A DNA stretch of 48,797 nucleotides from a virus (taxonomy: Duplodnaviria; Caudoviricetes), in the IMG/VR virus record IMGVR_UViG_3300048080_000334, positions 1 to 48,797 of that record; one strand, written 5' to 3'. This document shows, in pieces, positions 9,020-30,046 of the stretch. A program made the translations under genes and the position numbers. The notes under the pieces are model-generated. The model had not been told where the DNA came from. It did not search any database and saw only the letters and a program-made list of their open reading frames with translations. Position 1 is the first letter of the stretch, and each line of letters opens with the position of its first letter.

Positions 9020-9186
9020 TTCTTCTCCTCCCCTTCCCGGATCGGCTTGGCACGAACAGCAACCTCAGCTAGTGCATTTATGGCAATGGCACGTTCTGGA
9101 GAGGTCAGCTTGTAGTTCGTCAAGAGTTCAGCTAACAGCTCTACTGCTCTCGTGCTCGCCGCGCATCGCTCATCGAGGGGGATCAT
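9016..9186 (-). CDS. Small hypothetical protein (starts MIPLDER)
   Basis: GGAG RBS; shares its N-terminal DNA with two neighbours. Confidence 0.55.
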   Translation of the reverse strand: MIPLDERCAASTRAVELLAELLTNYKLTSPERAIAINALAEVAVRAKPIREGEEKK

Positions 9187-9481
9187 GGCTCTCCTGATCG
9201 TTGCCAACGTCCACGACGTAGAGCTTCGGCTCATGTTGTACGAGCATTGACGCTAAGTGTCGGCGCTGTTCCGAGGTCAGAATGACGGTCCAGACTTCTT
9301 CCCTGGAATTGACGCGGTAATTCAACGTCAGGGATAGGTCTCCGTCCTTGTTCACCGTAGCCGTCAATACAGAAGCGAAGCCGTCAGGCTGCCCGAAGCC
9401 GCCGCTATAGCGCGCCTTTACCACTGGATCGTTTGTTCGTGGGTCCAAGCCTCTAGTGGACCGCTCATCGAGGGGGATCAT
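9170..9481 (-). CDS. Hypothetical protein (starts MIPLDER)
   Basis: 103-aa track ORF, ATGA coupling. Confidence 0.6.
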   Translation of the reverse strand: MIPLDERSTRGLDPRTNDPVVKARYSGGFGQPDGFASVLTATVNKDGDLSLTLNYRVNSREEVWTVILTSEQRRHLASMLVQHEPKLYVVDVGNDQESHDPPR

Positions 9482-10150: not shown

Positions 10151-10443
10151 GGCCTATCCCCCAAACATGGGACGCGCTTTTCAGGCCAGCATCCCAATTC
10201 GTGACTGGCGCTACGGCACCCGCATCCTGGTATTGGTGTCGCCAAGTCTCGCAATTCATCAGCGAGGCGCGGTTTCATTTTGGAGCATGACGTGGCATAG
10301 GCGAGCAGGGCTGGCCGCGCATCTGGATCGTGATCGAGGTCGAGCACAAAGTACCGACAGTCCTCATGCTTCCCGCCCGGAGCGCTAGAGCCATCGGTTC
10401 TTGAGATATTGAACTTGTCATAAATGCCCCGTTCGTCGCTCAT
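10147..10443 (-). CDS. Conserved phage hypothetical protein
   Basis: GIYDKF...RTDG...GKHEDCRYFVLDLDHDP.A..AL.AYA, a motif I recognise from many phages; function unknown. Confidence 0.7.
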   Translation of the reverse strand: MSDERGIYDKFNISRTDGSSAPGGKHEDCRYFVLDLDHDPDARPALLAYATSCSKMKPRLADELRDLATPIPGCGCRSASHELGCWPEKRVPCLGDRP

Positions 10444-12659: not shown

Positions 12660-14011
12660 CAATCCGCCTCCTTCGTGCGATAGACCGCGATCTTGCTTCC
12701 GCCTACGGTACGGGACTCGACAGCGAGAAGCGCGCGCTTGGCCGCATCCGTGAGCCACCCCCTGGCCTGCTCGTGCTTGATTCCCAGCTTCTCAGCTACG
12801 GCCGATGCGGTCGTCTGACCAGCACCGATTTCGGCAACTGCCGCTACAACGCGTTGGATTCCCTCCTCTCGTCGGATCTTGCGGTCCATGTTGATTGCCT
12901 TGAGATCGCGCGAGAAAACGAACTTCGCCGAGGCGCCATCGCCGGGCTCGGGATTGATCCCGACCACGAGATCCCGCCAGGCGTTGCCTTCGAGGATGCG
13001 CGACTTACGGATCACGAATCGCAGCTCGTGCTCGCCGAGCCGAGCCGAGGCGAACATAACATCGGCCGCGCCGCGAAGCACCGAACTCCCGCGAACGTTA
13101 TCGGGATCGGTCGCATCGAATGGCACGCTGGTCGAGGCGGGGGGCTTCCGCGTGTGCGCGATCAAGAGCACCGTCGCCCCCGACTCCCGAATCTCCCGCG
13201 ACCAGTCGACAACGAGTGAAGCATCGCGCTCGGTGTTGATCGAGATCCCGCGTACCGACTCCGCCAGCGTATCGACGATGACGAGCGCGATCTGTTCCGA
13301 GGCAACATAGCCCGCAAGTTTGCGGCGAGCCGCATGGTCGGAAAGAAGCAACGGGCCCGAGCGATCCGACGGTCGAACGTCGAGCCCCGGCCATCCGTCC
13401 ATGCCCCTGAATGCCGCGAGATGCAGGAGCCGCTTTTTGAGCCTCCAGGTCGAGTCCTCGGCCGCGAGGTAGAGAACGAGCTCGGGGCCACCCGACCAGC
13501 CTGGGGGATCCCCTTGAGCCGTGAGCCCCGGTGGAAGAAAGCTGGCGCCGCTTGAAAGCGCGAGTCCGAGATCGAGAGCAAGGAACGATTTCCAGGCTCC
13601 ACTTTCGCCGTAGAGAATCGCAAGCGCGGGCTCACGCGGGAGGAGATCGCGGACAAGCCATCCCGGGTCCGAGATCCCGCTCCATCCCCCGTTGCCGCCG
13701 TGAAGAATCGCCCCGGGGGTGAGACTCGCCGGAACCGGATCGAGTACCCGATCGACGTAGGCCAGGAAGTCCTCGGGGCTCATGGCGCCTCGCCGCCTGA
13801 GCGAGGCCGCGGTACGGAGCTGCCGAAAGGCGGCGAGTTCGAGATCCTCTGGTTTCATGGCTAGCCCAAACGCCATAGAGGCCCCAGGAGCGACGTTTCC
13901 GAACGAGCCCAGCCAATGGCTTTCGGGCAGCGATTGATTGGCCTTGGCGGCCCCAGGATTGCCTTGAGTAAGCCCCCACGACTCATATCCACAGGCTTCA
14001 TTCCTCGTCAT
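12659..14011 (-). CDS. RepA/AAA_25-type (RecA-like SF4) replicative helicase with C-terminal HTH
   Basis: LYGESGAWKS Walker A, YLAAED, LVIVDTL Walker B, LIAHTRK and RGSS. Confidence 0.85.
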   Translation of the reverse strand: MTRNEACGYESWGLTQGNPGAAKANQSLPESHWLGSFGNVAPGASMAFGLAMKPEDLELAAFRQLRTAASLRRRGAMSPEDFLAYVDRVLDPVPASLTPGAILHGGNGGWSGISDPGWLVRDLLPREPALAILYGESGAWKSFLALDLGLALSSGASFLPPGLTAQGDPPGWSGGPELVLYLAAEDSTWRLKKRLLHLAAFRGMDGWPGLDVRPSDRSGPLLLSDHAARRKLAGYVASEQIALVIVDTLAESVRGISINTERDASLVVDWSREIRESGATVLLIAHTRKPPASTSVPFDATDPDNVRGSSVLRGAADVMFASARLGEHELRFVIRKSRILEGNAWRDLVVGINPEPGDGASAKFVFSRDLKAINMDRKIRREEGIQRVVAAVAEIGAGQTTASAVAEKLGIKHEQARGWLTDAAKRALLAVESRTVGGSKIAVYRTKEAD

Positions 14012-15851: not shown

Positions 15852-16145
15852 TTAATGCGGCAGCAGAGTATCGCGGAGCGGAATGGCCGCCATCGCGGTG
15901 CCCCGGAGAACCGCCTGGGTGTAGATCACGACGCCGGCCTCTTTATCGACCCATCGATAAATGCTCGTCCCGAATTCACCATGAACAACCTCGACTACAT
16001 CTTGGCTCAACTCATGAGGCCGGATCTTGGCGGGCTCGCATCCGGTATTCATCGGGCCGAGAATGGCGAACATTCCCAAGAGAACGAACATGAATAACCA
16101 AGGGACGGCGCTAAAGATGCGCTCTCCGACGTTCATGGTGGTCAC
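15852..16145 (-). CDS. Exported or lipoprotein-like small protein
   Basis: Hydrophobic N-terminus ending NTGC; WVDKEAGVVIY motif. Confidence 0.55.
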   Translation of the reverse strand: MTTMNVGERIFSAVPWLFMFVLLGMFAILGPMNTGCEPAKIRPHELSQDVVEVVHGEFGTSIYRWVDKEAGVVIYTQAVLRGTAMAAIPLRDTLLPH

Positions 16146-16182
16146 TTCTTACTCCGTATCTTTGTTTGTTCGGCTCCATAAT

Positions 16183-16260
16183 AAAAACGGGCGGGCCCGT
16201 TGCGGGGGAGCAACCGATGAAAGAAGCAACCCCGCGGGGTAGGCCCGCCCGCCAATCTCC
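16183..16260 (-). ncRNA. Putative antisense small RNA (hairpin with anti-RBS loop) ending in an intrinsic terminator
   Basis: 10-bp perfect stem CGGGCGGGCC/GGCCCGCCCG, inner GCGGGG/CCCCGC stem, loop UUCUUUCAUCGGUU and a UUUUU tail; lies in an otherwise empty intergenic gap. Confidence 0.6.
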
Positions 16261-16265
16261 AGGGC

Positions 16266-16274
16266 ATCATATCA
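16266..16274 (-). promoter_or_regulatory. Extended -10 promoter (TGaTATGAT) for the putative sRNA
   Basis: Matches TGnTATRAT about 6 nt upstream of GGAG at 16260; no good -35. Confidence 0.5.
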
Positions 16275-16294
16275 TCACGCGCCCGGGAATGGGG

Positions 16295-16549
16295 CTACTT
16301 GCCCGCGATCGCCTTGAGCTTGGCCACAACGCCCTGTGCCGCCTTCTCGGCCTTCCATACCCACTGGCCCATGCGGCCCCCCATGCCGTCGTCGTAGCAC
16401 CAGTTCGCAGGCTCCCCGTGATCCGGGTTGCACTCGTCGAATTGCTGCGCCCAGCGCGTGACGCACGGGCGAGCGTCGGCTGACGTCGCGGCGACGATCG
16501 TCGAGAGCACGGCCCCCACGATCAGAATCAGGACAATGGAAAGTTTCAT
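16295..16549 (-). CDS. Small secreted protein
   Basis: Signal peptide MKLSIVLILIVGAVLSTIVAATSADA. Confidence 0.65.
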   Translation of the reverse strand: MKLSIVLILIVGAVLSTIVAATSADARPCVTRWAQQFDECNPDHGEPANWCYDDGMGGRMGQWVWKAEKAAQGVVAKLKAIAGK

Positions 16550-17037: not shown

Positions 17038-18264
17038 CTAAAAGGGGACATCGGTGTCCTTGTGTGCGGACAGGATCGGAAGCAGCTTCTCGATCTGCGC
17101 CCGCGTGAGGCTCCCGAGCGCCACCGGCCCCGGCTTCATGTCCATCCCGATCCGCACCTCCGCCGGGAGAGTCACATACCAGCCGTCGGTTTCGCGCTTG
17201 CGTGAGAGATCGAGGGCCTTGATCAGCCCCCAAAGCTCCTCCATCTGCTCACGGGTCGGCGGCTTGGCGTCGGCCGCTGCGACTCCCGGAACCACGGACG
17301 ACGCGCCGGGGGCAGCCGCAGGAGCCGTAGCAACCCTGGACTGCCTTGTCTCAGGTGCCTCCCCGCCGCCCCCGGCGTCATTCGAGGCGACCGGGGCGGG
17401 TTGTCCGCTATCACCCGCCGACGCCTTCACCCCTCTCGCTCTAGGAGTAGACGTCGCCGCTTCCCCGGTCGCCAAATTGTCCTGCTCAAGGTCAGTCGTG
17501 AACATGCCGGCGCTTCGCGTGGCCGCGATAATCGCATCGTTGTAGGCGCGCTTCTTCGCCATCTTGAGGAGCGTGTTCGCCTGGTCGGCGATGTCCTCGT
17601 TCTCGATCCGGCCGACGACCTGGTCCGTGATCGCTGGATCGTCGATTGCGAACTTCTCTCGGCAGCCGCCGCCGTCCCGCGCCCAGCATACCCACGTCCC
17701 AGGGTCGCCCTCTTTGAATATCTTACCCCTAATGATCGTCTCGGCACCGCAAGCCGGGCAAGTACGCGCCCCCTTGCGCCAGCGATACCTCGCCTCGCGC
17801 GAGTTGGCGCTCCCGATCCCGTAGCCGACGACGAATCCAGTCCGCTTCGACACGACCTCGACCCGCACGAGGTAGGAGAAGAATGGGATTGGGTCGTCGA
17901 AGCGCTCGATCTTCTCGTCTACGATCATCCGGCCGAAGTAGCCATAGATTTCGGCTAGCATCTGCGCTCCGGCCTGATAGAGGATCCTTTTGGGCTTGCC
18001 ATCTGTGCCCACGACTCCGGGTAGGAATCCGTAGTCCACACCTTCGACCATCACCAAGCCAACGAAGCGCTGAAACTCGCGGAGCTGAGCCAGCGCCTCC
18101 TCGGGCGAGCGCACCATCTGCGGCGCTAGGTCAAGTGAGCGCAGTGCCAGGGCCGTCTCCCGTGGCGGCACCATCTCGGGCTCGATCGCCATATCTGAGT
18201 AGTCCTCAGCCTGGAGCGCCGGGTTGCCTTTCGGGTTGTCCTTCATTTCGTCTCGCTCGTTCAT
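17038..18264 (-). CDS. Putative single-strand annealing/recombination protein with zinc-ribbon insert
   Basis: GVDYG.LPG...K..L...GA..L, GIGSANSRE.RYR, CPAC...C...C, NTLLKMAKKRA..DA...FTTDLE; acidic C-tail DTDVPF. Confidence 0.6.
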   Translation of the reverse strand: MNERDEMKDNPKGNPALQAEDYSDMAIEPEMVPPRETALALRSLDLAPQMVRSPEEALAQLREFQRFVGLVMVEGVDYGFLPGVVGTDGKPKRILYQAGAQMLAEIYGYFGRMIVDEKIERFDDPIPFFSYLVRVEVVSKRTGFVVGYGIGSANSREARYRWRKGARTCPACGAETIIRGKIFKEGDPGTWVCWARDGGGCREKFAIDDPAITDQVVGRIENEDIADQANTLLKMAKKRAYNDAIIAATRSAGMFTTDLEQDNLATGEAATSTPRARGVKASAGDSGQPAPVASNDAGGGGEAPETRQSRVATAPAAAPGASSVVPGVAAADAKPPTREQMEELWGLIKALDLSRKRETDGWYVTLPAEVRIGMDMKPGPVALGSLTRAQIEKLLPILSAHKDTDVPF

Positions 18265-18479
18265 CGGTTCCTGCCTCCTCCTCGGATCGTGATTTCGGTG
18301 ACGGTGTGGGCGATCTCACAGCCAAGGATGTCGGCTGCATCGCTCAATGGCACGGCCTCGTTCTCGGCGCGCGCCATGTCGGCGGCATCGGACCCGTCGG
18401 CCCATGCCGACAGGATCATCGAGAAGCCGGTGTTCGTCGAGAGCCGCCGGATGTTACGTATGACAAGGTAGGCCTTCAT
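18261..18479 (-). CDS. Small hypothetical protein
   Basis: MKAYLVIRN..., ATGA coupling at both ends. Confidence 0.6.
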   Translation of the reverse strand: MKAYLVIRNIRRLSTNTGFSMILSAWADGSDAADMARAENEAVPLSDAADILGCEIAHTVTEITIRGGGRNR

Positions 18480-18715
18480 TTGTGGCGGCTCCCGCGATAG
18501 TCCCCGAAGCCGAACCGGCGCTCCTCGCGCATGGCGTCGTCCAGGGAGTCCCAAGTCGGGTCCGGCACGGGCTTGGCCGACGGGGCCACTGGATAGACGC
18601 GCTGGAGCCCGTCGAAGCACCAGGGGCAAAGCGGCACCCCAGTGTAGAGATCGGGCTCGACTTCGCCGTGGTGCGGGCAGTAATAGGCGGGATCGCGTGG
18701 CGTGTTCTGGCTCAT
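18476..18715 (-). CDS. First gene of the leftward early operon; zinc-finger-like
   Basis: CPHH...CPWC; GGAGGAACCG-ATG start. Confidence 0.65.
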   Translation of the reverse strand: MSQNTPRDPAYYCPHHGEVEPDLYTGVPLCPWCFDGLQRVYPVAPSAKPVPDPTWDSLDDAMREERRFGFGDYRGSRHK

Positions 18716-18773
18716 CGGTTCCTCCATCGGTTCGCTCGTTCATCGGTCAGGGGCTTCCCCCCTTGCAAGCCTG

Positions 18774-18802
18774 ATTATCGCTCGGCCGTGGCAGAATTGC
18801 AA
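18774..18802 (-). promoter_or_regulatory. Leftward early sigma70-type promoter
   Basis: TTGCAA-N17-GATAAT with an A-tract upstream. Confidence 0.7.
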
Positions 18803-19132
18803 ATAGTTTTTTGCCCGCTCGGCCACCGCAATTTGCCCGCTCTCGGGTTGCCGCCAGCCAGCTGCAAGGGGGGCGCCCAGGTTGGGTCATTTTGGCCAAA
18901 ACGCCATAGAGCCCACAGGAGCGACTTTCGAGCAGGTGCCCGGCCTTCTGGCCCCGGGCGGCGATCTCCCGGCCCTGGCGCCCGCCCGCCGCTACGGCCT
19001 GGCCCATCGTGGAGCTGCGATCCCCCTGGAAACGTACCGCCCTGGGCCAGCCCCGCCGCCCGGCCGCCAGCCTTGGCCCGGGTTAAGCTTACTTACCTAA
19101 ATAGAAAATCGACCGCCGAGCTACTTTTTTAT

Positions 19133-19161
19133 TTGCAAAACGGCGGCGAATGAGCGATGAT
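19133..19161 (+). promoter_or_regulatory. Rightward early sigma70-type promoter
   Basis: TTGCAA-N17-GATGAT with a T-tract upstream; same ATTTGCAA...GAGCGAT(A/G)AT layout as the left promoter. Confidence 0.65.
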
Positions 19162-19220
19162 AGAAGCGATCGAAGGATGGGGGCGGCCCCCCCCGAAGCA
19201 AGCAACCGATGGAGGAACCG

Positions 19221-19406
19221 ATGAACTCGAACCAGACCTTCCGCTACTCGACCTGGACCTCCCGAGCCTTCAATGCCGTCCGCCTACGCCGGGCTGTCAT
19301 GGCTGGCCGCGCCGAGTTTGCCAGCGTCCCGATAGGCGTTATCGACCTCGCCTTCTGGCAGATCACGACCTACCTCAACCGCCGGTCGCTCCGGCAGGGA
19401 CGGTAG
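19221..19406 (+). CDS. First gene of the rightward early operon, hypothetical
   Basis: GGAGGAACCG-ATG start. Confidence 0.65.
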   Translation: MNSNQTFRYSTWTSRAFNAVRLRRAVMAGRAEFASVPIGVIDLAFWQITTYLNRRSLRQGR

Positions 19407-19408
19407 CC

Positions 19409-19759
19409 ATGACCCGCTACTCGATCCGGTGCCGCATCTGCAACGAGACCTGGGCGGAGGACGCGAGGAGTTCAACCGATGTTGGCATCTTCCATCCCTG
19501 CACCAAGGGAAACGAAGGGGATCACGAGCTAAGAAGCTGGCCCCTCCGAGCGAGCCGGTTAGAGATCCATGCGGTCAAGTGGACCGCTGGTAGCGAGCAC
19601 AAGTGCAGAGCTAGATGCTGGAATGCCATCGGATCCGCCTGTCGGTGCGAGTGCCGTGGAGCCAGGCACTCAAGCCTCCGCCTCCGCAAGTCACCAGAAG
19701 TCGAGCGCGCGGAGGTTGATGCCATCTTCGAGAGCCTTAGTGGAGGTATAGTCCGATGA
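19409..19759 (+). CDS. Cys/His-rich phage protein
   Basis: CRIC...HKCRARCWNAIGSACRCECRGARH. Confidence 0.7.
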   Translation: MTRYSIRCRICNETWAEDARSSTDVGIFHPCTKGNEGDHELRSWPLRASRLEIHAVKWTAGSEHKCRARCWNAIGSACRCECRGARHSSLRLRKSPEVERAEVDAIFESLSGGIVR

Positions 19760-19863
19760 GCGCCATCCCCAAGCTCTGGATCCCAATCGTCGCCTCGATC
19801 GTGTTGTGGGGATTCGCCTGGTTGGCGGGCAGGCTCGTCGCGGATTGGATCGGAGGTGTCTGA
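19756..19863 (+). CDS. 35-aa membrane peptide
   Basis: MSAIPKLWIPIVASIVLWGFAWLAG...; GGAGG RBS, coupled on both sides. Confidence 0.55.
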   Translation: MSAIPKLWIPIVASIVLWGFAWLAGRLVADWIGGV

Positions 19864-20027
19864 TGAGCGCCCCCGATCTCACCCTGTCGCGGCTCCATCG
19901 CCAGCTCGCCTTCCTTGAACTCGATCGCCGGGGCGCGGCCGAGCGCCTGTCACAGATCGAGGAAAGCATCCAGCTTTTCGAGGAGCGCATCCGCCTCGCC
20001 GAGAAGCCGGAGAAGGCACGGTCGTGA
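19863..20027 (+). CDS. Small coiled-coil protein
   Basis: MSAPDLTLSRLHRQL...; TGATG coupling. Confidence 0.6.
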   Translation: MSAPDLTLSRLHRQLAFLELDRRGAAERLSQIEESIQLFEERIRLAEKPEKARS

Positions 20028-20479
20028 CGAAGCGCGACGGCATCCCGGTCGAAGGCAATGGCGGGCGTCGCTTCGTCTTGAAGTGCAGATCATGTCACGC
20101 GCCCTGGACCGAGGAGCACCCCCGTGACGAGGCCCCGACTCGCCTTGCCCGCGATCACCACTGCGCGGGATTCGACACGCTGTGCGTCGCGGGCGGATCG
20201 TGGCAGGCGATCCTCTTGATGGGCATTCGGGTACTGCCCGTGGTCTGGCACCCCGGTCATGAGCATCCATGCTCTCCCGTGTGTTCGGCGGCCGCTGGGG
20301 CGGAGTGTCGCTGTGCTTGCAAAGGGGCGCAGCACGGTGTCGCTTTGCTACCGGCGGCCGCCATCTCCAAGGCCGAACTCGACGCGCTTTACGATCGCCT
20401 GGATAGCTCGGCGAGATTCCGCAAGGGCGACCCTATCGACCGCTCTAATCCGTTCCCACGCAAAGGAGGCAACCGATGA
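20024..20479 (+). CDS. Cys/His-rich protein, paralogue of 19409-19759
   Basis: CRSC...EHPCSPVCSAAAGAECRCACKGAQHG. Confidence 0.7.
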   Translation: MTKRDGIPVEGNGGRRFVLKCRSCHAPWTEEHPRDEAPTRLARDHHCAGFDTLCVAGGSWQAILLMGIRVLPVVWHPGHEHPCSPVCSAAAGAECRCACKGAQHGVALLPAAAISKAELDALYDRLDSSARFRKGDPIDRSNPFPRKGGNR

Positions 20480-20700
20480 GCCCCATGACACTGCTTGAGG
20501 CTTGCGCCTTCGCGCGGCTCCGAGCGCCCAGGACCGAAAGCGATTTGCACGCGATATGGCGCGAGCTTGACCGCCGCGGAATCAAACATAACCTGATCGA
20601 TGAGCCCGGCTATAAGTGCTGGAAGGCCACCGTGTTCAAGGCTCGGGGCTGTGCCGTGCAGGTCGCCGTCGCGGCCGCCCGGCGGGGGATGAAGCCGTGA
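20476..20700 (+). CDS. Small hypothetical protein
   Basis: GGAGGCAACCG-ATG start. Confidence 0.65.
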   Translation: MSPMTLLEACAFARLRAPRTESDLHAIWRELDRRGIKHNLIDEPGYKCWKATVFKARGCAVQVAVAAARRGMKP

Positions 20701-21056
20701 GCAACTGCGAGGGATGCGGGCTCCTCTTCTCCTGGCTATATACCTGTGCGCAGGATGAGCAACCGATGCTCGGATTCTGCGACCGCTGTGCCATTGTTCA
20801 TCTAGTCGGCGCACACGACTTTCCCGATGAAGCGGCTTTCCACGAGGTGGTCGGTCTTCATCTCTTACAGGAGCGCGCCCGCACCATGCAACAGATAGCG
20901 ATGGTCCCCGATGAGATGGCAGAGGAGGAATTGATGAAGGAGAAGACCGTCGGCGGCTTGACCATGAGCACGATTGCGTTTTCCGCTGGCTATGTGCAGG
21001 GGTGCAGAGCCGTGGCCGCCCGCCTTGTGGCGATGGTGAAGGGGGAGACGTCGTGA
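20697..21056 (+). CDS. Hypothetical zinc-finger protein
   Basis: CEGC...CDRC; GTGA coupling. Confidence 0.6.
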   Translation: MSNCEGCGLLFSWLYTCAQDEQPMLGFCDRCAIVHLVGAHDFPDEAAFHEVVGLHLLQERARTMQQIAMVPDEMAEEELMKEKTVGGLTMSTIAFSAGYVQGCRAVAARLVAMVKGETS

Positions 21057-21304
21057 AGAAGAAGCGAGGGCCAGAATCAGACCGCGAGCGGTTCATCCGC
21101 ATCGCCGAGAAGCGCACCCAGCGCGTGATCGCACGGCTCCGAATCCTCGGGAACTGCCATAACCGCCAGTACTACGAGTACCGGCCCAAGGACGTCGAGC
21201 GCATCTTCCTTGCGATTAGCGAGGCTGTAGCGGAGACGCGCCGCCTGTTCGATCAGAAGCAGTCCGTCGAGCAATTCAGCTTCGCGGAAAAGGACGAGCA
21301 ATGA
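21053..21304 (+). CDS. Conserved small helical protein
   Basis: RERFIRIAEKRT......RILGN..N...YEY...DVERIF.AI, a widespread family of unknown function. Confidence 0.7.
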   Translation: MKKKRGPESDRERFIRIAEKRTQRVIARLRILGNCHNRQYYEYRPKDVERIFLAISEAVAETRRLFDQKQSVEQFSFAEKDEQ

Positions 21305-21720
21305 ACAGGCGCGACCTAAACGAGATGCTCGGGAAGATGCACTGGGTCGTGGCGTACCTCATGAACGACCATCGAATGGCGCGCCGGTTCGCCGCCGCTG
21401 AGGGCGTACGGACGTGGACGCGGTATCCGCTGACTATCGCCTGGGATCCGACGCCCTGGGCCTCGGAGTGGCGCGCGTGGAACGACGACGAAGGCTGCCG
21501 CTACCTCCGGCTCGGGCGGGTCATGCTTTGCTGGCACGCGTGCCAGGGAACGACGCCGCCAGCGTACGAAGACCGAAGGCGCGCGGTTTTCCTTATGGCG
21601 ATGCAACCGCACCTGCCGCGAATGGACATAGCGCAGCTCAATGAAGATTACGCGAAGCTCATGTCGGCAATAGAAGAGCTTGGCAACGAAGCAAATGAGA
21701 AAGGAGGCGGCGATCAATGA
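21301..21720 (+). CDS. Hypothetical protein
   Basis: 139 aa, ATGA coupling. Confidence 0.6.
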   Translation: MNRRDLNEMLGKMHWVVAYLMNDHRMARRFAAAEGVRTWTRYPLTIAWDPTPWASEWRAWNDDEGCRYLRLGRVMLCWHACQGTTPPAYEDRRRAVFLMAMQPHLPRMDIAQLNEDYAKLMSAIEELGNEANEKGGGDQ

Positions 21721-21984
21721 AGCCCAAGCGCTGGACAGTTGGAAGACGTCAAGGGCGTGATCCACAACCCCGTCTACACCGGCATGGGCGCCTACCCGGT
21801 AGTCGTGGACGAGAGCGTGTGGGTGAAGTCGGCGATAGTGGCCATCGAGGAAGAAGGCACCGAGGAGTTCCTGCGCAGAATGCTCGCCGTGCTCAGAGCC
21901 GCGATGGACTTGGCCGCGGCGAACGAGCTGTCGCTCCGCCACGACGCGCCCACGATCGAAGGAGGAACCGATGGACCTGCGTGA
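21717..21984 (+). pseudogene. Small recombinase-domain-like protein with an apparent +1 frameshift at about 21741
   Basis: MKPKRWTV (frame 21717) joins EDVKGVIHNPVYTG...YPVVVDESVW (frame 21739) to give W..V..NP.Y.G...P..D..W. Confidence 0.45.
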
Positions 21985-22255
21985 GACGTTGGAAGTCGAA
22001 GGCTATTCCTGTGTCCGCCAATTGCCGAACGGCGTCTATATCGGCGTTCGTCGCCAATTGTTCACCGTCGGCCTCTTTGTCGGTCTGGATGAGACGGGCT
22101 ACCGATACCGATACTGCTACGAGTGGGAGAAAGATGCTTTAGCGGCGTGCGCGGTATGGGATGGCTGCGGGCATCCGCCCGGACCTTGGGTGAAGATCAA
22201 GGGCGACCATCCAGAGAGTGAGCGTCTAGGACCCGGGGCCGCCGATGTCTATTAA
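21971..22255 (+). CDS. Hypothetical protein, last of the rightward operon
   Basis: GGAGGAACCG-ATG start; YRYCYE...A...WDG.GHPPGPWVKIKG; stop overlaps the convergent gene (TTAA). Confidence 0.7.
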   Translation: MDLRETLEVEGYSCVRQLPNGVYIGVRRQLFTVGLFVGLDETGYRYRYCYEWEKDALAACAVWDGCGHPPGPWVKIKGDHPESERLGPGAADVY

Positions 22256-23887: not shown

Positions 23888-24535
23888 CTACTCCTCCCTG
23901 AATGGCACGGTGATGTGCGCCGGGCATTGGCCGTAGAAGTCCAGGCCCTCGATTGTTGCGGGGTTGACCTCGCTCTCGCCGTAACGATCACCCACCATGT
24001 CGCAGATTATCGTCGTGATGGGAAGGACGTGCTCGGCGTGCCGGCCCGAGAACTTCTGGCACCGCTCGCCTACCAATGCAAGCTGATCGAAATGCTCCTC
24101 GGCGATCACCTGGATGCCGGTCTCGGGGAAGGCGTGTCGCGGACACCAGAAGGTAATCCACCCCTTCTCGATCTCGTTCATCTTGTTGACCATCCGCCGG
24201 CTCGCCAAGTAGAAGTCGCTCTCGACGTGCCAGATACGGCGACATCCGAGGTCGCGCGCGATCGTGGCGGCGTGGCCAAACGACCGCCACCAGCCAGGAT
24301 AGTCGAGATGCGACGGTCGGCCGAGATGCGGTGCCAGGTTCGCGGCATGGTAGTTACCCGGCGGATGAACGATCTGTGGCCAGGTGATCTCCGGGGCGAT
24401 CCCGTCGCCCACGACAGCGAACTCCACGTCGCATGGGTAGGCGATGCGGCCGTGATGATTGAGCCAGCGGCCGACGCGCCCCTGCATGTGATCGGTCGAG
24501 TCCGACCATGCCGTACACGATATGAGGGTTTTCAC
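23888..24535 (-). CDS. Putative glycosyltransferase (GT-A-like)
   Basis: VVGDG, GWWRSF and IWHVESDFYL (ExD metal site); cluster context. Confidence 0.55.
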   Translation of the reverse strand: MKTLISCTAWSDSTDHMQGRVGRWLNHHGRIAYPCDVEFAVVGDGIAPEITWPQIVHPPGNYHAANLAPHLGRPSHLDYPGWWRSFGHAATIARDLGCRRIWHVESDFYLASRRMVNKMNEIEKGWITFWCPRHAFPETGIQVIAEEHFDQLALVGERCQKFSGRHAEHVLPITTIICDMVGDRYGESEVNPATIEGLDFYGQCPAHITVPFREE

Positions 24536-25224
24536 TTCGCCCTCACGATATGGATCCAGAACCAGTAGCTTTTGAACTCGGGCCAGTCCATTACGCGCCC
24601 TAGCCGGTTAGCCCAGTAGCCAGGCGGCAGGAGTTTTAGAATTATGTCGAGCATGTAGGCAGGCGTTCGGCACATCCGCCCGTCGAAGCCTGGAGGAATA
24701 TCGGGCCGATCCCAGTTGTTCTCACTGTCGATCGTCGATCCCGCCAGATGTAGCGAGAACATTCCTCCTGGGTGGAGCGCCCGGGCGACGGACACAACCT
24801 GGGCCAATAAGTCGGGCTCGGCCATGTGCTGAGCCACGAGATGAGATACGGCTAAGTCGTACTCGGCTACCGGCAGAAGGTCAAGGCGATCGTGGAGGTA
24901 GAAGTTTCGGATCCATGGGCGCACCTGCGCTTCGGCCTTTTCCGCTATGTCCAGGGCATCGACAATACACTCGCGCTCGCGGAACATGCGGGCCGCGTAG
25001 CCGAGGCCGACGCCGATATCGAGGACGCGGGCCCCGGGGCGCACGAGGTGTTCGACCTGGTGGTGCCGAAGCATCTCGGCCGGGTCGGACCCGGAAAGGG
25101 CGTCAGCATCCTTGACGGTGTGGGCTTGGTTCCAGGCTGCCGCCCGTACCGCATACTCGTCAGCTCTTATCGTGAGCGATGTGGAAGCCAACGGCCCCCC
25201 CAAGGAACTTGAAGAACATGCCAA
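24532..25224 (-). CDS. Class I SAM-dependent methyltransferase
   Basis: VLDIGVGLG, ALDI, YDLAVSHLVAQH and ALHPGG. Confidence 0.85.
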   Translation of the reverse strand: MACSSSSLGGPLASTSLTIRADEYAVRAAAWNQAHTVKDADALSGSDPAEMLRHHQVEHLVRPGARVLDIGVGLGYAARMFRERECIVDALDIAEKAEAQVRPWIRNFYLHDRLDLLPVAEYDLAVSHLVAQHMAEPDLLAQVVSVARALHPGGMFSLHLAGSTIDSENNWDRPDIPPGFDGRMCRTPAYMLDIILKLLPPGYWANRLGRVMDWPEFKSYWFWIHIVRAK

Positions 25225-26458
25225 GGCGCATCATTCGGATCGCCAGGTGAAGGTCGCTCGCCCCGTGGGGGTTGCCCTCGGGGTAGCCGCCGGTGCGAAG
25301 CCAGTCAGCGTGGGTGATCGCGCCGGCGAAGAAGAGCGGAGCCGGGCGGGCGCGGCCGCTGTAGACCTCGACGGCCTGGCGCCCGACCTCGATCGCCACC
25401 GGGGGGGCCACCGTGCCTTCACCGCCATCTGGGCGCCGCCCCTCTGGATCGATCACGCCGAGATAGGGGGGCTGATACAAGCACTCTCCCGCGTTCCAGC
25501 CCGCCGCTACGGCCTGCTCGACCGCCAGGAGCTGTTGTTCCCCACCAGCGAGCACCGTGGCGAAGGCCGCGGCCCCGGGCTCGCACGCTTCGAGGAGTTG
25601 GCGTGCCAATGGCGTAAGATGCACGACCTCGGCCGATTGCTGGATCAGCACGTCGCCTCGCCCCATAGCCATGAGCTGGTTGAAAAGCTCACCCGTATCG
25701 GCCCGGTAGCCACCCGCCCTCTCAATCCGCTCCGACCGGACCCCTGGATAGTCGGCGAGCATCCAGCGCGTCTCGTCGGTCGAAGCGTCGTCGAGGACCA
25801 CAACCTCGGTTTCGGCGTAGCGTTGCGCCTCGATCGACCGGAGCGTCATCTCCAGGAGTCGCCAGCGGTTACGCGTCGGGATTAGGATCGAGGCCAGGGG
25901 CGGCATATCGCGCCGCCGCCAGTATGTCCCTACCGTCGCCAGCCCACTTGGCACGGGCCCACGATGGAGTTCGCGCCAGCCGTCGTCGATAAGCTCCTCG
26001 TGCGTCCACTGAGCGACGTGCTCCTCGTACGGGTTGCCGAACGGCTCGCCGCGCTGGGGGCAATCGGTCACGGGGATCGAGAGGAAGAGGGTGAGGCCGG
26101 CGGCGAGCATCCGATCGACCAGCGCCCTCGCGTCGTCCTTGGGCATGTGCTCCAGCACGTCGCCAAGGATTGCAGCCTCGTATTCGTCCCAGGCGCCGAA
26201 CTCGCGGGCGTCGGCAACATGGACCCCGGCGTAGAGCTCGCCCAAGGGGAACCGCTCGACGTAGGGCGGCCATATTTCCAGGGCGTCGATACGGACGCGA
26301 TCGCGGAGGAGCCGACCCCATTTCCCCTCGCCAGCCCCCACGTCGATCACGCCGTCGGGCTTGAGGGCGAGGATGTGCTCGACCATGAGGTCGCGCCCGG
26401 CGATCGGCTGCTCGCTCTCCGGCACGTTAGCCCCCCGGTAGTTCGTAGGTCCGGACAT
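25160..26458 (-). CDS. Methyltransferase-GT2 glycosyltransferase fusion
   Basis: N-domain VIDVGAGEGKWG, GDVLEH and NPYEEH; C-domain SILIPTRNR, VVLDDASTD and GGYPE...SDLHLA.R. Confidence 0.85.
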   Translation of the reverse strand: MSGPTNYRGANVPESEQPIAGRDLMVEHILALKPDGVIDVGAGEGKWGRLLRDRVRIDALEIWPPYVERFPLGELYAGVHVADAREFGAWDEYEAAILGDVLEHMPKDDARALVDRMLAAGLTLFLSIPVTDCPQRGEPFGNPYEEHVAQWTHEELIDDGWRELHRGPVPSGLATVGTYWRRRDMPPLASILIPTRNRWRLLEMTLRSIEAQRYAETEVVVLDDASTDETRWMLADYPGVRSERIERAGGYRADTGELFNQLMAMGRGDVLIQQSAEVVHLTPLARQLLEACEPGAAAFATVLAGGEQQLLAVEQAVAAGWNAGECLYQPPYLGVIDPEGRRPDGGEGTVAPPVAIEVGRQAVEVYSGRARPAPLFFAGAITHADWLRTGGYPEGNPHGASDLHLAIRMMRLGMFFKFLGGAVGFHIAHDKS

Positions 26459-26717
26459 CGGGAGCGTGGCCCATCCGCCCGCGCTCGATCGCCTCGGCCA
26501 GGCGACGGTTGATTTCGTCCCGAAGCCTTACGCGCTGCTCCCCTGCCTTGCGAGCCTTGAACTCAAGCTCCGAGATGCGGCCGTTATTGGCGTCCTTGCC
26601 CTTGCGGCGCTCTGCGAGGATGTTCTCATTGGCGTGGTAACACTTGATATTTTCTATGGATAGCTTGTCGATCAGCTCGCCGATCGAACAGACGTAATCG
26701 TAGCTCTCGGCTGTCAT
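26427..26717 (-). CDS. Small helical protein of the kind found in glycan loci (DUF4254/DUF6165-like)
   Basis: SIGELIDKLSIENIK...EQRVRL..EIN. Confidence 0.6.
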   Translation of the reverse strand: MTAESYDYVCSIGELIDKLSIENIKCYHANENILAERRKGKDANNGRISELEFKARKAGEQRVRLRDEINRRLAEAIERGRMGHAPDVRTYELPGG

Positions 26718-27484
26718 GCCCCCTCCGCCATGTGCTCCGCCCCGGGCGGGCGCCGGCCGCGCCGCTCAACGGCTTCGTGATGGTAGACGATCGAATCGCG
26801 GCAGAGGAGGAACTTGGCCCCATGGTCGGCGCAGATAGCGAAGAATCGGCGATCGGGGGCGTCCCCGCCTTCGTGTCGCAGAGCCCACGGCCCGTACCGC
26901 GCCCACCATGAGCGGTGAAGCGCGTAGGGAAAGGTGGCGCAACTTCGCCACCCGCCAGGCACCTCGTCCTGTGTCGCTACGCGGTCCTCGCGCAACCGCT
27001 CCGCAAGCCGCTCGAAGCCGATGAGGTCGAAGGTATCGGCCGTCGGCAGGCCGAAGTTCCCGTAAATGATCCCCACGCCCTGGGCCGAAGGATCGCCCGC
27101 CGGCGTGGGTGTGATGTGGAGCGAGTTGGGGATCACTCCGGGCTCCGTCGCCCGGCGCACCAAGTTGGCGAGCCATCCCTTGGCAAAGGCCATGTCGGTG
27201 TTCACCGGCACCACCCAATCGTTTGCCAGAATCCCAGTGTCAAATCCGTGGTTCATCATTGCGCGAAGCTGCGGAACATAGTCGAGCCCTGGCTGAGTCT
27301 CGAACGGGATGCGGATGATGGGATAACCTGCGTACTCGATCCAGGTCACAACCTCGGGAGTGGGAAGCCAGGTCACGACATAGTAGTCGAAGTCGTCGGT
27401 ACCCGCGTTGTCGAAAATCATCCCCGTCGAGAACTTGAGCATCTCGATGGCGGTGCTACAAAAATTGACAACACTCACGCGCAT
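26714..27484 (-). CDS. GT2-like glycosyltransferase
   Basis: MNHG, VVPVNTDM...GWL..L, PDRRF and IVYHH. Confidence 0.75.
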   Translation of the reverse strand: MRVSVVNFCSTAIEMLKFSTGMIFDNAGTDDFDYYVVTWLPTPEVVTWIEYAGYPIIRIPFETQPGLDYVPQLRAMMNHGFDTGILANDWVVPVNTDMAFAKGWLANLVRRATEPGVIPNSLHITPTPAGDPSAQGVGIIYGNFGLPTADTFDLIGFERLAERLREDRVATQDEVPGGWRSCATFPYALHRSWWARYGPWALRHEGGDAPDRRFFAICADHGAKFLLCRDSIVYHHEAVERRGRRPPGAEHMAEGA

Positions 27485-28296
27485 GCGGCGAGGATCCTCC
27501 TGATCTCGGCCGGCACCGCCCCGGGCATCGTCGCCACATTGTCAGCTGTGAGAGCCATGTTCCAGGATTGATTCATGCCACCGTACCAATGCACGCCGCA
27601 GCAGTCCTCGGGGATCTCTGGATAATCATTACGCTCAAACATCCACGGATGCCATTGCATCCACTCGCCCTTGAGTGCGAATGGGTAGACGACGCGCTCG
27701 GAGAGTAGTGCTTTGGGCTCTGGGATCTCGTCCCATGAGGCGGGGAAACGCCCGGCGCCACAGCTTTCGTAGACTGTGGGGTTGTAGGCTTCGCGTGCTC
27801 GCTGGTACATCTCCCGCCAGAACTCGCATGGCCGGCCCTGGAGGAATCCGATTGGCATGTACCCGGCCTTGGGCCAGCCAGTGCAAACGACCATTTGGAT
27901 CGGGGCAGTGATCACTGGTAACGGACGAATGAACAGCACGTCCATGTCCGCCACGGTCCCTCCCTGCTCGGCCAAGAGCTTCCACCCGAGGAGATCGGAG
28001 GTCTGGACGTCGGGGGCCGCAAGCTCGGCCAAGTCGAGCGCGATCTCGTGCAGCGGGATCTGTTTGACCGTCGGCGGCAAACGATCGATCCAGTTCTTTC
28101 CGATGGCCGGCATCTGGAAGTCCTGGTGTTCGTGCCAGTGCTTCGAGGCCCGCATCTCCGATTCGTGGAGTGCCTGGTCATTCTCCCGCCTGACCAGGAT
28201 CACGTTGTCGTGGACGAGGCTCGCGCTCTTGAGAGTCATCCAGCGAAGGAACGTAAGATGATTCCCGCCCCAAAAGAACCAGAGCGGGTCGCTCAT
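27475..28296 (-). CDS. GT32-like (DxD) glycosyltransferase
   Basis: FFWGG, SDLLGWKLLAEQGGTVADMDVLFIRPL and GVHWYGG. Confidence 0.8.
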   Translation of the reverse strand: MSDPLWFFWGGNHLTFLRWMTLKSASLVHDNVILVRRENDQALHESEMRASKHWHEHQDFQMPAIGKNWIDRLPPTVKQIPLHEIALDLAELAAPDVQTSDLLGWKLLAEQGGTVADMDVLFIRPLPVITAPIQMVVCTGWPKAGYMPIGFLQGRPCEFWREMYQRAREAYNPTVYESCGAGRFPASWDEIPEPKALLSERVVYPFALKGEWMQWHPWMFERNDYPEIPEDCCGVHWYGGMNQSWNMALTADNVATMPGAVPAEIRRILAACA

Positions 28297-29384
28297 ACGA
28301 AGTTGCCGTGCGTCACGGGCAGCGTATTGATCAGGTGATTGATAGCGCGGTTCTTGTCGTTAAACTGGCATCGCGGGCACGATCGAGCGTCGAACCGGGC
28401 GAAATCGTCATGCTTCGACTGCGACTCCCAAAGGTCGCGGAAGCGCTGGCTCTTGAGCGAGCCGATGGCGCCGCGCTCGGTGTAGGAGAGGACGCAGCAC
28501 CGATAGAGGTTCATGTCACCGCCGATATAGGTGGTGAAGTTCTGGTAGCCGCATCGCTTGTAGTCGGGGGAATGCAGCTCCAGATCCGAGAGTCTGGTTC
28601 CGAAGTTGTTGATCACCGTGAATCCGTTGCCGCTGATCGTCTCGGCTTCGGCGCATAGCGCCACCGCTTCGTCGTGAAATTCGGCGAAGTAGTGATCGTC
28701 GTCGGGCTGGAACATCGCCGAGATGCGCATGTTGTCGGCCCCCAGGTCGCGCGCAAGCCGCGCCCCATCGACGACCTCTCCCCAATTCTCCTTCGTCACC
28801 ACGAAGCCGATGCCGATGGTCAGCGGCCGCGTGGCGTCGAGGCGCGCTGCGACTAGGGAACGCACGTTCGCCAGCACTTTGTCCCAATGCCCGCTCGGTA
28901 CGTGCCGAACCGCGCAATACGTCTCCTGGTGGGCGGCGTCGATTGAGATGCGTGTCCACTTGGCGCTCATCAGCTGGGGCAGGACAAGCGGCAGCCGCAC
29001 CCCGTTAGTAACGAGAGCAACGTCGAGGCCGAGGTCGAGCGCTCGCTGCATGATCTGCGCGCATTGCGGGTGGACGGTCGGCTCACCCCCGCCGGTAAAC
29101 TGCACCGCCTTGCCGCCCATGCCCTCGAAGTCCTCAAGAATCTCGACGGCCTTGTCGAATGGGATCATCCGGTTTGGGTTGTGATTGCGCGTACCGTCGG
29201 CCTCGATCACTGAAAAGCTCTCGGTATAGTTCTCGATCCTGTAGGCACAGAAGCTGCAATCCTGGTTGCAGAGATCCGAGATGATGAAATGGAGATGAAC
29301 CGGGGCGGGCTGCTCCCCCGAATGGATCTTGAGAAGGCGGTCCATGTGCAATACCGCCTTGTCGGCGGCGTAGGGACTGCTCAT
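28293..29384 (-). CDS. Radical SAM enzyme with SPASM/twitch domain
   Basis: CNQDCSFC, FTGGGEP, TNG, RISID; C-terminal C...YRCC...IGSL...LW...CPRC. Confidence 0.9.
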   Translation of the reverse strand: MSSPYAADKAVLHMDRLLKIHSGEQPAPVHLHFIISDLCNQDCSFCAYRIENYTESFSVIEADGTRNHNPNRMIPFDKAVEILEDFEGMGGKAVQFTGGGEPTVHPQCAQIMQRALDLGLDVALVTNGVRLPLVLPQLMSAKWTRISIDAAHQETYCAVRHVPSGHWDKVLANVRSLVAARLDATRPLTIGIGFVVTKENWGEVVDGARLARDLGADNMRISAMFQPDDDHYFAEFHDEAVALCAEAETISGNGFTVINNFGTRLSDLELHSPDYKRCGYQNFTTYIGGDMNLYRCCVLSYTERGAIGSLKSQRFRDLWESQSKHDDFARFDARSCPRCQFNDKNRAINHLINTLPVTHGNFV

Positions 29385-30046
29385 CGCACCATCCTGACCT
29401 GCGGTAGTTCGACCATCTGCGGCCCCCCGGGTAGGTTCGAGCTATTGCGACCGTATTCCACCACGGCGAGCTCGTGGCAGTCGAGCACTCGATAGCCGTG
29501 CTTCTTCGCTAGGTACCCGGCCCAGGCGCTGTCTTCGCTGTAGCGGCGCTGGTTCACCGGCATGGCGACGACTTCGCCATTGATCAGGCGCCGATGATAG
29601 ATCTGGCAGGTAGCAGTTCGACACTCGCCCGGAGGCAACACCAGCCAGCGCACGCCACCCATCGTGATCGGGAAGACACCCATTGCCTCGGGTCCTCGGT
29701 CTCCGACCAAGCGCACGAGCGTTTCGATGGCGTCGGGGACGTAGTAGTCGTCGTCGTCGAGGTAGAGGATGTAGTCGCCCGTCGCCTGGTGGGCGGCGAT
29801 GTTGCGGCAGGTCGCCCCGCAGTCGTTATGACGCGCGCCACAGCGGATGAATTTCCGCCGTGGCGATGCCCAGCGCTCGGCCGCATGGGCGGAGAGTTCC
29901 GCAGGCTCGGCTCCGTCTATCACCACGATATGCTCGTAGTCAGACGACGTCTGCGCGTCAACGCTGGCCATCGTCCTATCGGCCGTGATCCGCATGATCG
30001 TCGGTGTGACGATTGAGAACTTCGGCATCCTCCTCACTACGGGCAA
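29381..30046 (-). CDS. GT2 glycosyltransferase
   Basis: SIVTPT, VVIDG, RN.A...ATGDYILYLDDDD and SED. Confidence 0.88.
   Translation of the reverse strand: MPVVRRMPKFSIVTPTIMRITADRTMASVDAQTSSDYEHIVVIDGAEPAELSAHAAERWASPRRKFIRCGARHNDCGATCRNIAAHQATGDYILYLDDDDYYVPDAIETLVRLVGDRGPEAMGVFPITMGGVRWLVLPPGECRTATCQIYHRRLINGEVVAMPVNQRRYSEDSAWAGYLAKKHGYRVLDCHELAVVEYGRNSSNLPGGPQMVELPQVRMVR

Follow-up and report, generated by a model that had tools for sequence, protein, structure and literature searches.

A hairpin RNA candidate antisense to a start-site tag of early genes in an uncultured phage

Behind the last gene of a leftward early operon, the virus genome studied here has a strong hairpin whose tip carries, in reverse, a short sequence that otherwise accompanies gene starts. 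The question is whether this hairpin gives an RNA that acts on the early mRNAs by base pairing or serves transcription termination only. The window, that is the whole stretch of DNA analysed (48,797 nucleotides), is a linear virus record of 48.8 kb with 62% GC, ~80% complete, and it is cut within the portal gene. Its sequence was found in one sediment DNA run, possibly the source sample, in whose reads the hairpin is present without variants; no RNA dataset was found to contain it. No cultured relative was found, the best listed terminase matches being 21-27% identical, and a blastn search of the hairpin region against cultured phages gave four short matches, in a coding part.

Searches with PHROGs and Pfam identified terminase, tail, primosomal, AAA_25 helicase-like and RusA genes. 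Neither an integrase nor a CI-like repressor was matched among the window ORFs scanned (89, 70 and 7 ORFs; PHROGs/Pfam), a search for HTH_3 across the contig was empty, and no antirepressor or repressor was matched in PHROGs or Pfam among the early ORFs scanned, where remote homologs could escape. The window contains no tRNA. Nearly all genes are on the minus strand, with the exception of a plus-strand block (19221-22255). A cluster of glycosyltransferase, radical SAM and methyltransferase genes (23888-30046, minus strand), 38-74% identical to that of the relative G008, is possibly involved in virion or DNA modification. Two repeats were also observed: an exact 20-nt repeat at two neighbouring gene starts (9167-9186 and 9462-9481), and a 51-nt repeat, 78% identical, with one copy in the replication gene region (13864-13914) and the other in the early intergenic region (18895-18945).

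The hairpin behind the leftward early operon

The sequence, coordinates and pairing of the hairpin were as a first, sequence-only reading had given them (Table 1). The hairpin lies within the 158-nt gap that follows the 84-aa gene, and is the first strong stem with a U-tract downstream of the leftward promoter; it is therefore probably the 3' end of the leftward operon and is predicted to be its terminator. The description of the RNA as made about 2.5 kb away leaves out of view that the hairpin starts ~40 nt past the last gene of the very leftward operon that it would control. The RNA may thus be a 3'-end product of the leftward mRNA. The extended -10 sequence reported at 16266-16274 is present, is the sole TGnTATRAT match in the contig and lies between the stop codon of the 84-aa gene and the stem, where this putative promoter could yield a separate 78-nt RNA.

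The 83-nt minus-strand sequence folds at -45.2 kcal/mol (z -4.33), and none of 200 shuffled sequences was equally stable; the two strands fold almost alike (-45.2 vs -43.7). The tip had been described as a 14-nt loop that pairs at all 14 positions. The pairing was recovered; in the predicted fold, however, the loop is not an open one of 14 nt, and the 22-nt tip is made up of weak 2-bp helices that carry a terminal loop of 6 nt. The UUCA of this tip presumably corresponds to the U-turn loop motif of antisense RNAs. No gathering-score match to Rfam was obtained in the window, and a search limited to 15900-16500 returned four chance-level matches (E up to 10), none of them to c4, which bears out the exclusion of c4 and other known RNA families. 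The 84-aa protein, which has no named family match, is one of a small family of phage proteins in which the N-terminus resembles a signal peptide and the pattern C..EP..WC..G..W, cysteines included, is conserved; a role in superinfection exclusion would be a guess.

Table 1. Positions of the features discussed (window coordinates unless another record or contig is named)
Feature	Position	Strand	Remarks
Hairpin RNA, ~78 nt	16183..16260	-	Basal stem, internal loop, GCGGGG/CCCCGC stem, 22-nt tip, U5 tail
Recognition tip UUGCUUCUUUCAUCGGUUGCUC	16208..16229	-	Pyrimidine; terminal loop UUCAUC predicted unpaired, holds anti-AUG triplet
Extended -10 match TGATATGAT	16266..16274	-	Candidate internal promoter, putative function; no -35 by eye
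84-aa protein gene (marker)	16295..16549	-	Last gene of leftward early operon; start untagged; homologs mark hairpin position in relatives
Tagged start of 408-aa gene (17038-18264), phrog_10048	18253..18272	-	Third-ranked target; 18 bp predicted with the 22-nt tip
Leftward leader, three CCGATG seeds	18715..18748	-	Main site 18737-18715, 21 bp predicted with the 22-nt tip, one bulge; spans Shine-Dalgarno of first leftward gene (ATG 18715)
Leftward early promoter-like site TTGCAA-N17-GATAAT	18774..18802	-	Pattern match
Rightward early promoter-like site TTGCAA-N17-GATGAT	19133..19161	+	Pattern match
Rightward leader, tandem AACCGATG	19201..19223	+	Best target, 20 bp predicted with the 22-nt tip, 17 contiguous; spans Shine-Dalgarno of first gene (ATG 19221)
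Tag copy before 17-codon ORF nested in another ORF	19474..19481	+	
Tagged start of 74-aa early gene	20471..20478	+	13 bp predicted; weak after accessibility
Tagged start of 96-aa early gene	20761..20768	+	12 contiguous bp; weak after accessibility
Tagged start of 94-aa early gene	21966..21973	+	10-bp core; weak after accessibility
G001 hairpin, loop antisense to AAAGGAGACC(AA)	L182:7418-7510	-	Tag of six starts
Multi-hairpin RNA loci of relatives	L198:10200-10650 (-), L223:12400-12680 (-), L212:9880-10250 (+), L284:1755-2100 (+)		
Tiny hydrophobic ORFs of relatives	L182 after 7576 (-); L363:8281-8370 (+); L189 below 290 (-)		
Adephagia hairpin	JF704105 record ~58655-58720 (L374:30655-30720)		

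The start-site tag and its predicted pairing with the tip

The tag AACCGATG occurs 11 times in the contig, where 1.6 copies are expected and at most 5 were found in 100 shuffles. Ten copies are sense to the local genes and only the one at 16212, in the hairpin tip, is antisense, in agreement with the sequence-only reading. Six copies are located at called early start codons (18715, 18264, 19221, 20476, 20766 and 21971); the others are one tandem upstream copy in each of the leaders, one before a 17-codon ORF, one at 10399 and the one in the hairpin tip. The AACCG motif precedes 6/16 early starts and 0/58 other starts (Fisher p 4e-5), a count for which the early region was set after looking and which relies on our own gene calls, with seven dropped and three added by inspection. 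CCGATGGAGRAWCCGATG is also found in many unrelated contigs. In both leaders (19209-19223, plus strand; 18727-18713, minus strand) the upstream tag provides an ATG that is in frame and lies four codons ahead of the called one (MEEP-M), and the choice of start could be part of the control. The window leaders also contain a GGGGG/CCCCC hairpin, smaller, where the relatives G008 and G005 have a TCGGGGGG...CCCCCCGA stem.

The two early operons diverge from two sites with the pattern TTGCAA-N16/18-RATRAT, which was derived from those same two sites and has no other match in the contig (0.02 matches expected). The third gene start considered below, that of the 408-aa protein, belongs to a gene whose product matches unnamed phage clusters and has lead-level similarity only to Rad52/ExoX-like families.

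Accessibility-based interaction energies were calculated for the hairpin RNA against 74 starts. The leaders of both operons, which had been expected to top such a ranking, came first (19221, -17.3 kcal/mol) and second (18715, -13.9), followed by the start of the 408-aa gene (18264, -12.2); the fourth-ranked start reached -7.5 kcal/mol, and the other three tagged starts gave -3.2 to -6.4 with structure counted, that is weak binding. These energies disregard the strain of a 20-bp duplex in a closed loop, and opening the upper stem changes the fold from -38.4 to -25.4. The 17-nt pairing proposed at 19201-19217 was confirmed and extends to 20 bp. Nowhere in the contig is there a longer uninterrupted antisense match to the rightward leader than this 17-bp run at the hairpin; masking the hairpin leaves 12, and the maximum in 200 Markov genomes was 16. 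The 14-bp run of the leftward leader is unexceptional alone, as runs of at least 14 occurred in 51/200 Markov genomes, and, since the rightward leader contains the identical 14-mer, it is not independent.

Matched hairpins and tags in other phages

A terminase alignment gave a clade at 40-48% identity, the larger records of which were compared; the nearest terminases (64-67% identical) are on contigs outside the hairpin comparison. With an HMM built from three sequences, homologs of the 84-aa marker gene were found in G008, G005, G004 (E 1e-8), G001 (3e-6) and G002 (3e-5), with a weak one in G010 (0.021), and G021 has a homolog but no terminase match. Among these seven relatives, a matched loop and tag system is clear in one (G001), weak in one (G008) and not seen in five: in G002, G004, G005, G010 and G021 no enriched target set was detected for an unpaired loop. 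G002, G010 and G021 have strong hairpins at the marker-gene position, and hand-selected loops of G002 and G021 did not favour the starts of the genome they came from.

In G001, the terminase of which is 47% identical to that of the window, the hairpin again follows the homolog of the 84-aa gene and folds at -48.3 on the transcribed strand vs -37.3 on the other (z -5.0). Its tag is a different one: AAAGGAGACC, absent from the window, is found in six sense copies before starts and in one antisense copy in the loop, against a maximum of one copy among 200 Markov genomes. The G001 loop, UUAUGGUUUGGUCUCCUUU, pairs at 19/19 positions with one start. Each RNA was also compared with the starts of the other phage, and each favoured those of its own. 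The best energy of the window RNA was -17.3 on its own starts vs -7.5 on the 83 starts of G001, and the G001 RNA gave -12.1 to -18.3 on five of its own starts vs -13.6 on one window start. Five of the six differences between a tip and its best target are G.U-compatible (3/4 in the window, 2/2 in G001). The two hairpins have GCGG...CCGCAAC-N-GGC in common, and a descriptor made from their stems gave four distinct matches in 3.6 Mb made up of partly redundant loci; this comparison involves two sequences with a poor automatic alignment and no formal covariation.

A scan blind to motif and position, in which 8-mers common to at least three starts were searched for as mirrored copies in 3' intergenic regions, ranked first the hairpins of the window (6 starts), G001 (8 starts) and G008 (3 starts), each located behind the 84-aa gene or its homolog. 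A strict cut-off (at least five starts, 6/8 bases unpaired and at most -40 kcal/mol), chosen after seeing both positives, was passed by the window and G001 only among 50 genomes or loci, 36 of which are fragments of 15-21 kb.

G004, G005 and G008 keep a leader with CCGATGGAGAATCCGATG and, behind the marker gene, a hairpin with GAGGUCUCCAUC. The GAGGUCUCCAUC loop mirrors 4/67 starts in G008; for the conserved hairpin, the CCGATGGAGAATCCGATG leader ranked 5th of 53 starts in G004 and outside the top 14 in G005 and G008. The sequence GGTCTCTCCAT directly after the marker gene of G005 proved to be a small-ORF spacer and not an antisense loop. A wider search for the window sequences gave no IMG/VR match to the exact leader 20-mer and 99 matches to the loop 15-mer, none of them within a comparable hairpin. 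A degenerate leader pattern was found in 19 viral and 119 metagenome stretches, mostly unrelated; among the matches listed, a tblastn comparison found the terminase in common for G004, G005, G008 and near-copies only, and L358 was a chance pattern match.

Several other features were seen in these relatives. Behind their marker genes, G008, G005, G004 and L284 share a conserved multi-hairpin RNA in which some changes appear to be compensatory and the GAGGUCUCCAUC tip is invariant. Immediately upstream of the CCGATGGAGAATCCGATG start lies a TCGGGGGG...CCCCCCGA stem, in G008 (L198:9715-9800, minus strand) as well as in G005 (L223:10010-10090, minus strand). Between the marker gene and a structured RNA, G001, G021 and G005 have tiny hydrophobic ORFs with a DIFW-like ending, a layout that resembles type I toxin-antitoxin systems. 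In G005 (L223:11990-12420 and L188:18096-19463, both minus strand), a 455-aa gene matching phrog_850 (RNA-binding protein) is preceded by several tRNA-like repeats; we take its product to be TROVE/Ro60-like and the arrangement to resemble phage Ro60 with Y-like RNAs, and no Rfam match at gathering score was obtained. The early promoters differ as well. The window has two sigma-70-like TTGCAA sites, whereas the early regions of relatives (L198, L223, L182 and L186) contain repeated sigma-54-like cassettes, each followed by a TGCGCGG...CGC leader hairpin; their TGGC-N7-TGCA is presumably the sigma-54 consensus. Sigma-54-like sites are not in excess in the window (6 vs 4.4 expected).

A comparable arrangement was found outside this clade. 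The Start-Associated Sequences (SAS) of Cluster K mycobacteriophages are asymmetric, have one orientation and are present in 11-19 copies at the starts of non-structural genes; a single reversed copy is present in four K1 phages, and their function is stated there as unknown (PMC3203893, excerpted text). In Adephagia, 31.6 of 59.6 kb of which were examined, we found 16 sense SAS sites and one reversed site, at record position 58682. The reversed copy forms the loop of an intergenic hairpin (z -2.9 against 60 shuffles; unpaired probability of the core 0.99), and the element is found in 131 mycobacteriophage records. In four records compared, the loop CCUCCUAUCCC is invariant, and among 16 predicted pairs one shows a two-sided change, four show one-sided changes (including that one) and three are broken or gapped in one sequence. 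The hairpin folds equally on both strands, and a hypothetical gene is annotated across the element in 5/12 listed records. No reversed SAS was present in the parts examined of TM4 (26.8/52.8 kb) and Pixie (33.1/61.1 kb). The window tag is likewise an asymmetric start repeat in one orientation with a single reversed copy, of different sequence: judged by eye, AACCGATG with its varied upstream Shine-Dalgarno does not fit the 13-bp SAS consensus, and it contains the AUG, whereas the SAS lies wholly upstream of it. The SAS and the window tag are unrelated in sequence and in host group, and the inverted repeats of the extended SAS are a Cluster K feature of which none was noticed in the window. The account of the SAS, in the portion of PMC3203893 considered, does not mention a hairpin or an antisense RNA.

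Possible roles and comparison with known phage regulators

On balance, we consider it probable that the hairpin acts as a phage antisense RNA that damps or shuts off early translation by pairing of its tip with the tag. Support from the sequence comes from the tag itself, its restriction to early starts, the strong hairpin that contains the one antisense copy, and G001, where the same layout goes with another tag. The RNA would be supplied by the 3' end of the leftward early mRNA, by the extended -10 promoter or by both. Its unpaired UUCAUC loop would seed on GAUG, and the duplex would then spread over the first gene's Shine-Dalgarno sequence in each divergent operon and over the AUG of the 408-aa gene. 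Loading of the 30S subunit would be blocked, as is described for c4 and sar in the excerpted text of PMC12197685. As U pairs with A or G, one tip could read several variant starts. As the early operon would itself be the source of the RNA, accumulation of the RNA would feed back negatively and bring the early phase to a close, so that an apparently non-integrating phage would have an RNA-only negative feedback on its early phase. Untagged distal genes, that of the 84-aa protein included, would escape direct repression.

The sequence-only reading had proposed a candidate RNA master repressor for immunity, early shut-off or a carrier state. As an immunity repressor, a steadily made RNA would silence both early operons while the phage persists as a plasmid-like prophage or in a carrier state, and would keep out superinfecting kin, like P4 CI RNA and P1/P7 c4 RNA. 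The best targets are indeed the first genes behind both divergent promoters, the RNA has an extended -10 candidate of its own, the contig is without an HTH_3 protein, and Adephagia, with the same layout, carries an integrase. Loop and tag also differ between relatives, as in heteroimmunity (PMC12197685, excerpted text on c4). On the other hand, neither a tyrosine integrase nor a serine recombinase was matched among the window ORFs scanned or in five relatives, three of which are at least 90% complete (an HTH_3 protein is present in G005, which is among the five), and no homolog of the marker gene was found in 185,579 prokaryote genomes. The absence of an integrase from the window is not proof in itself, since the window is only ~80% complete. 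We regard immunity as unlikely, and early shut-off fits better because no integrase was found in the contig or in the five relatives. Of the original proposal, an antisense RNA directed at the ribosome-binding regions of both operons is thus retained, on account of the ranking and of G001, whereas the role of master repressor in immunity is not.

It appears just as improbable that the hairpin is a terminator only, the tag being read by a RegA-like protein or favoured as an initiation context and its mirrored copy being left over from an inverted leader or else opening a plus-strand gene. The U-tail and the position fit a terminator, the tandem motif is common in unrelated contigs, and T4 RegA represses ~30 mRNAs at their AUG regions (PMC3014915, in part) and so offers a precedent. 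An 88-codon plus-strand ORF does begin in the loop, and the sequence-only reading had named such a gene as the finding that would overturn it. This objection failed: the ORF runs head-on into the conserved 84-aa gene, with which it overlaps, and it scores -1.3 for coding vs 15.4 for that minus-strand gene; it has no PHROG match and in relatives has only a 12-residue match (E 0.75), so no credible homolog, and its start is ATA instead of ATG in the G001 equivalent. Moreover, a terminator needs no 22-nt tip that tracks each phage's own tag.

The hairpin might alternatively work as an attenuator, with early leaders pairing with the nascent tip, opening the hairpin and allowing readthrough into the resolvase, primosomal and helicase genes. 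These replication genes do lie downstream on the same strand, and a sigma-70 scan gave no minus-strand promoter between them and the hairpin. However, forcing the tip and the upper stem apart leaves the basal stem in place, and just before the U tail there is a backup hairpin of 6 bp. Gating is not a conserved role, as the G001 hairpin is, read by eye, apparently followed by a separate promoter cassette, and we rate an attenuator as very improbable. Pairing within one molecule only, with the leftward mRNA's 3' end folding back on its own leader, would suit a hairpin that shares a single predicted 2.6-kb transcript with two top targets, but it has the slightest chance of all, the best target being the opposite-strand operon and 3/6 AAAGGAGACC sites of G001 lying downstream of the hairpin, behind further promoter-like cassettes.

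An antisense RNA that shuts off early translation would have precedents in part. The c4 RNA of P1 and P7 (RF01695) is likewise a structured phage RNA with loop sequences pairing near ribosome-binding sites of its own mRNA, and its sequence varies between related phages (PMC12197685, PMC2864571, excerpts). In the window RNA, loop-borne complementarity to its own ribosome-binding regions is found as predicted pairing. It differs from c4 in being one unbranched hairpin without Rfam match, in addressing a common tag at several starts of two divergent operons instead of one antirepressor operon, and in that no repressor-antirepressor pair was recognised in the window. The CI RNA of P4, described in the excerpted text of PMC4825925, is small, is processed from the transcript under its control and pairs with two sites there, the flanking seqA and seqC, where it causes premature transcription termination and so maintains lysogeny. 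The window hairpin stands where the leftward transcript is predicted to have its 3' end, and, unlike those of CI, its sites are Shine-Dalgarno and AUG regions at a distance of 2-5.8 kb, non-flanking and including the opposite operon. The window RNA would work like c4 and CI but is a member of neither. P22 sar and lambda OOP are also small phage antisense RNAs that lower expression of a phage gene (PMC12197685, excerpt); they have one target each, whereas the window RNA is partly complementary to several distant starts. T4 RegA and RegB similarly silence many early and middle mRNAs post-transcriptionally at translation starts (PMC3014915, excerpt), but are proteins, whereas the specificity of the window system would come from base pairing. 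No description of an anti-tag hairpin RNA design was found in the literature searched, in which subscription journals were thinly covered.

A broader proposal is that such hairpins represent a widespread RNA-only phage master switch, in which a private tag and its mirror hairpin are reprogrammed together and replace a protein regulator of the early phase, and which explains the Cluster K SAS as well as their single reversed copy; we put this forward tentatively, at slightly less than an even chance. Proteins such as RegA and RegB of T4 are known to shut off early genes as a class, and to our knowledge the known phage antisense RNAs (c4, CI, sar and OOP) control one operon each. If the proposal is true, phages would have a different means of timing infection, in which one hairpin reaches an entire gene class by way of an exchangeable tag, and such a hairpin would offer a compact scaffold for multi-gene translational control. 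The start-associated repeats of phage genomes would also gain a concrete interpretation, and as Adephagia is cultured and has the same layout, it provides a testable model in Mycobacterium smegmatis.
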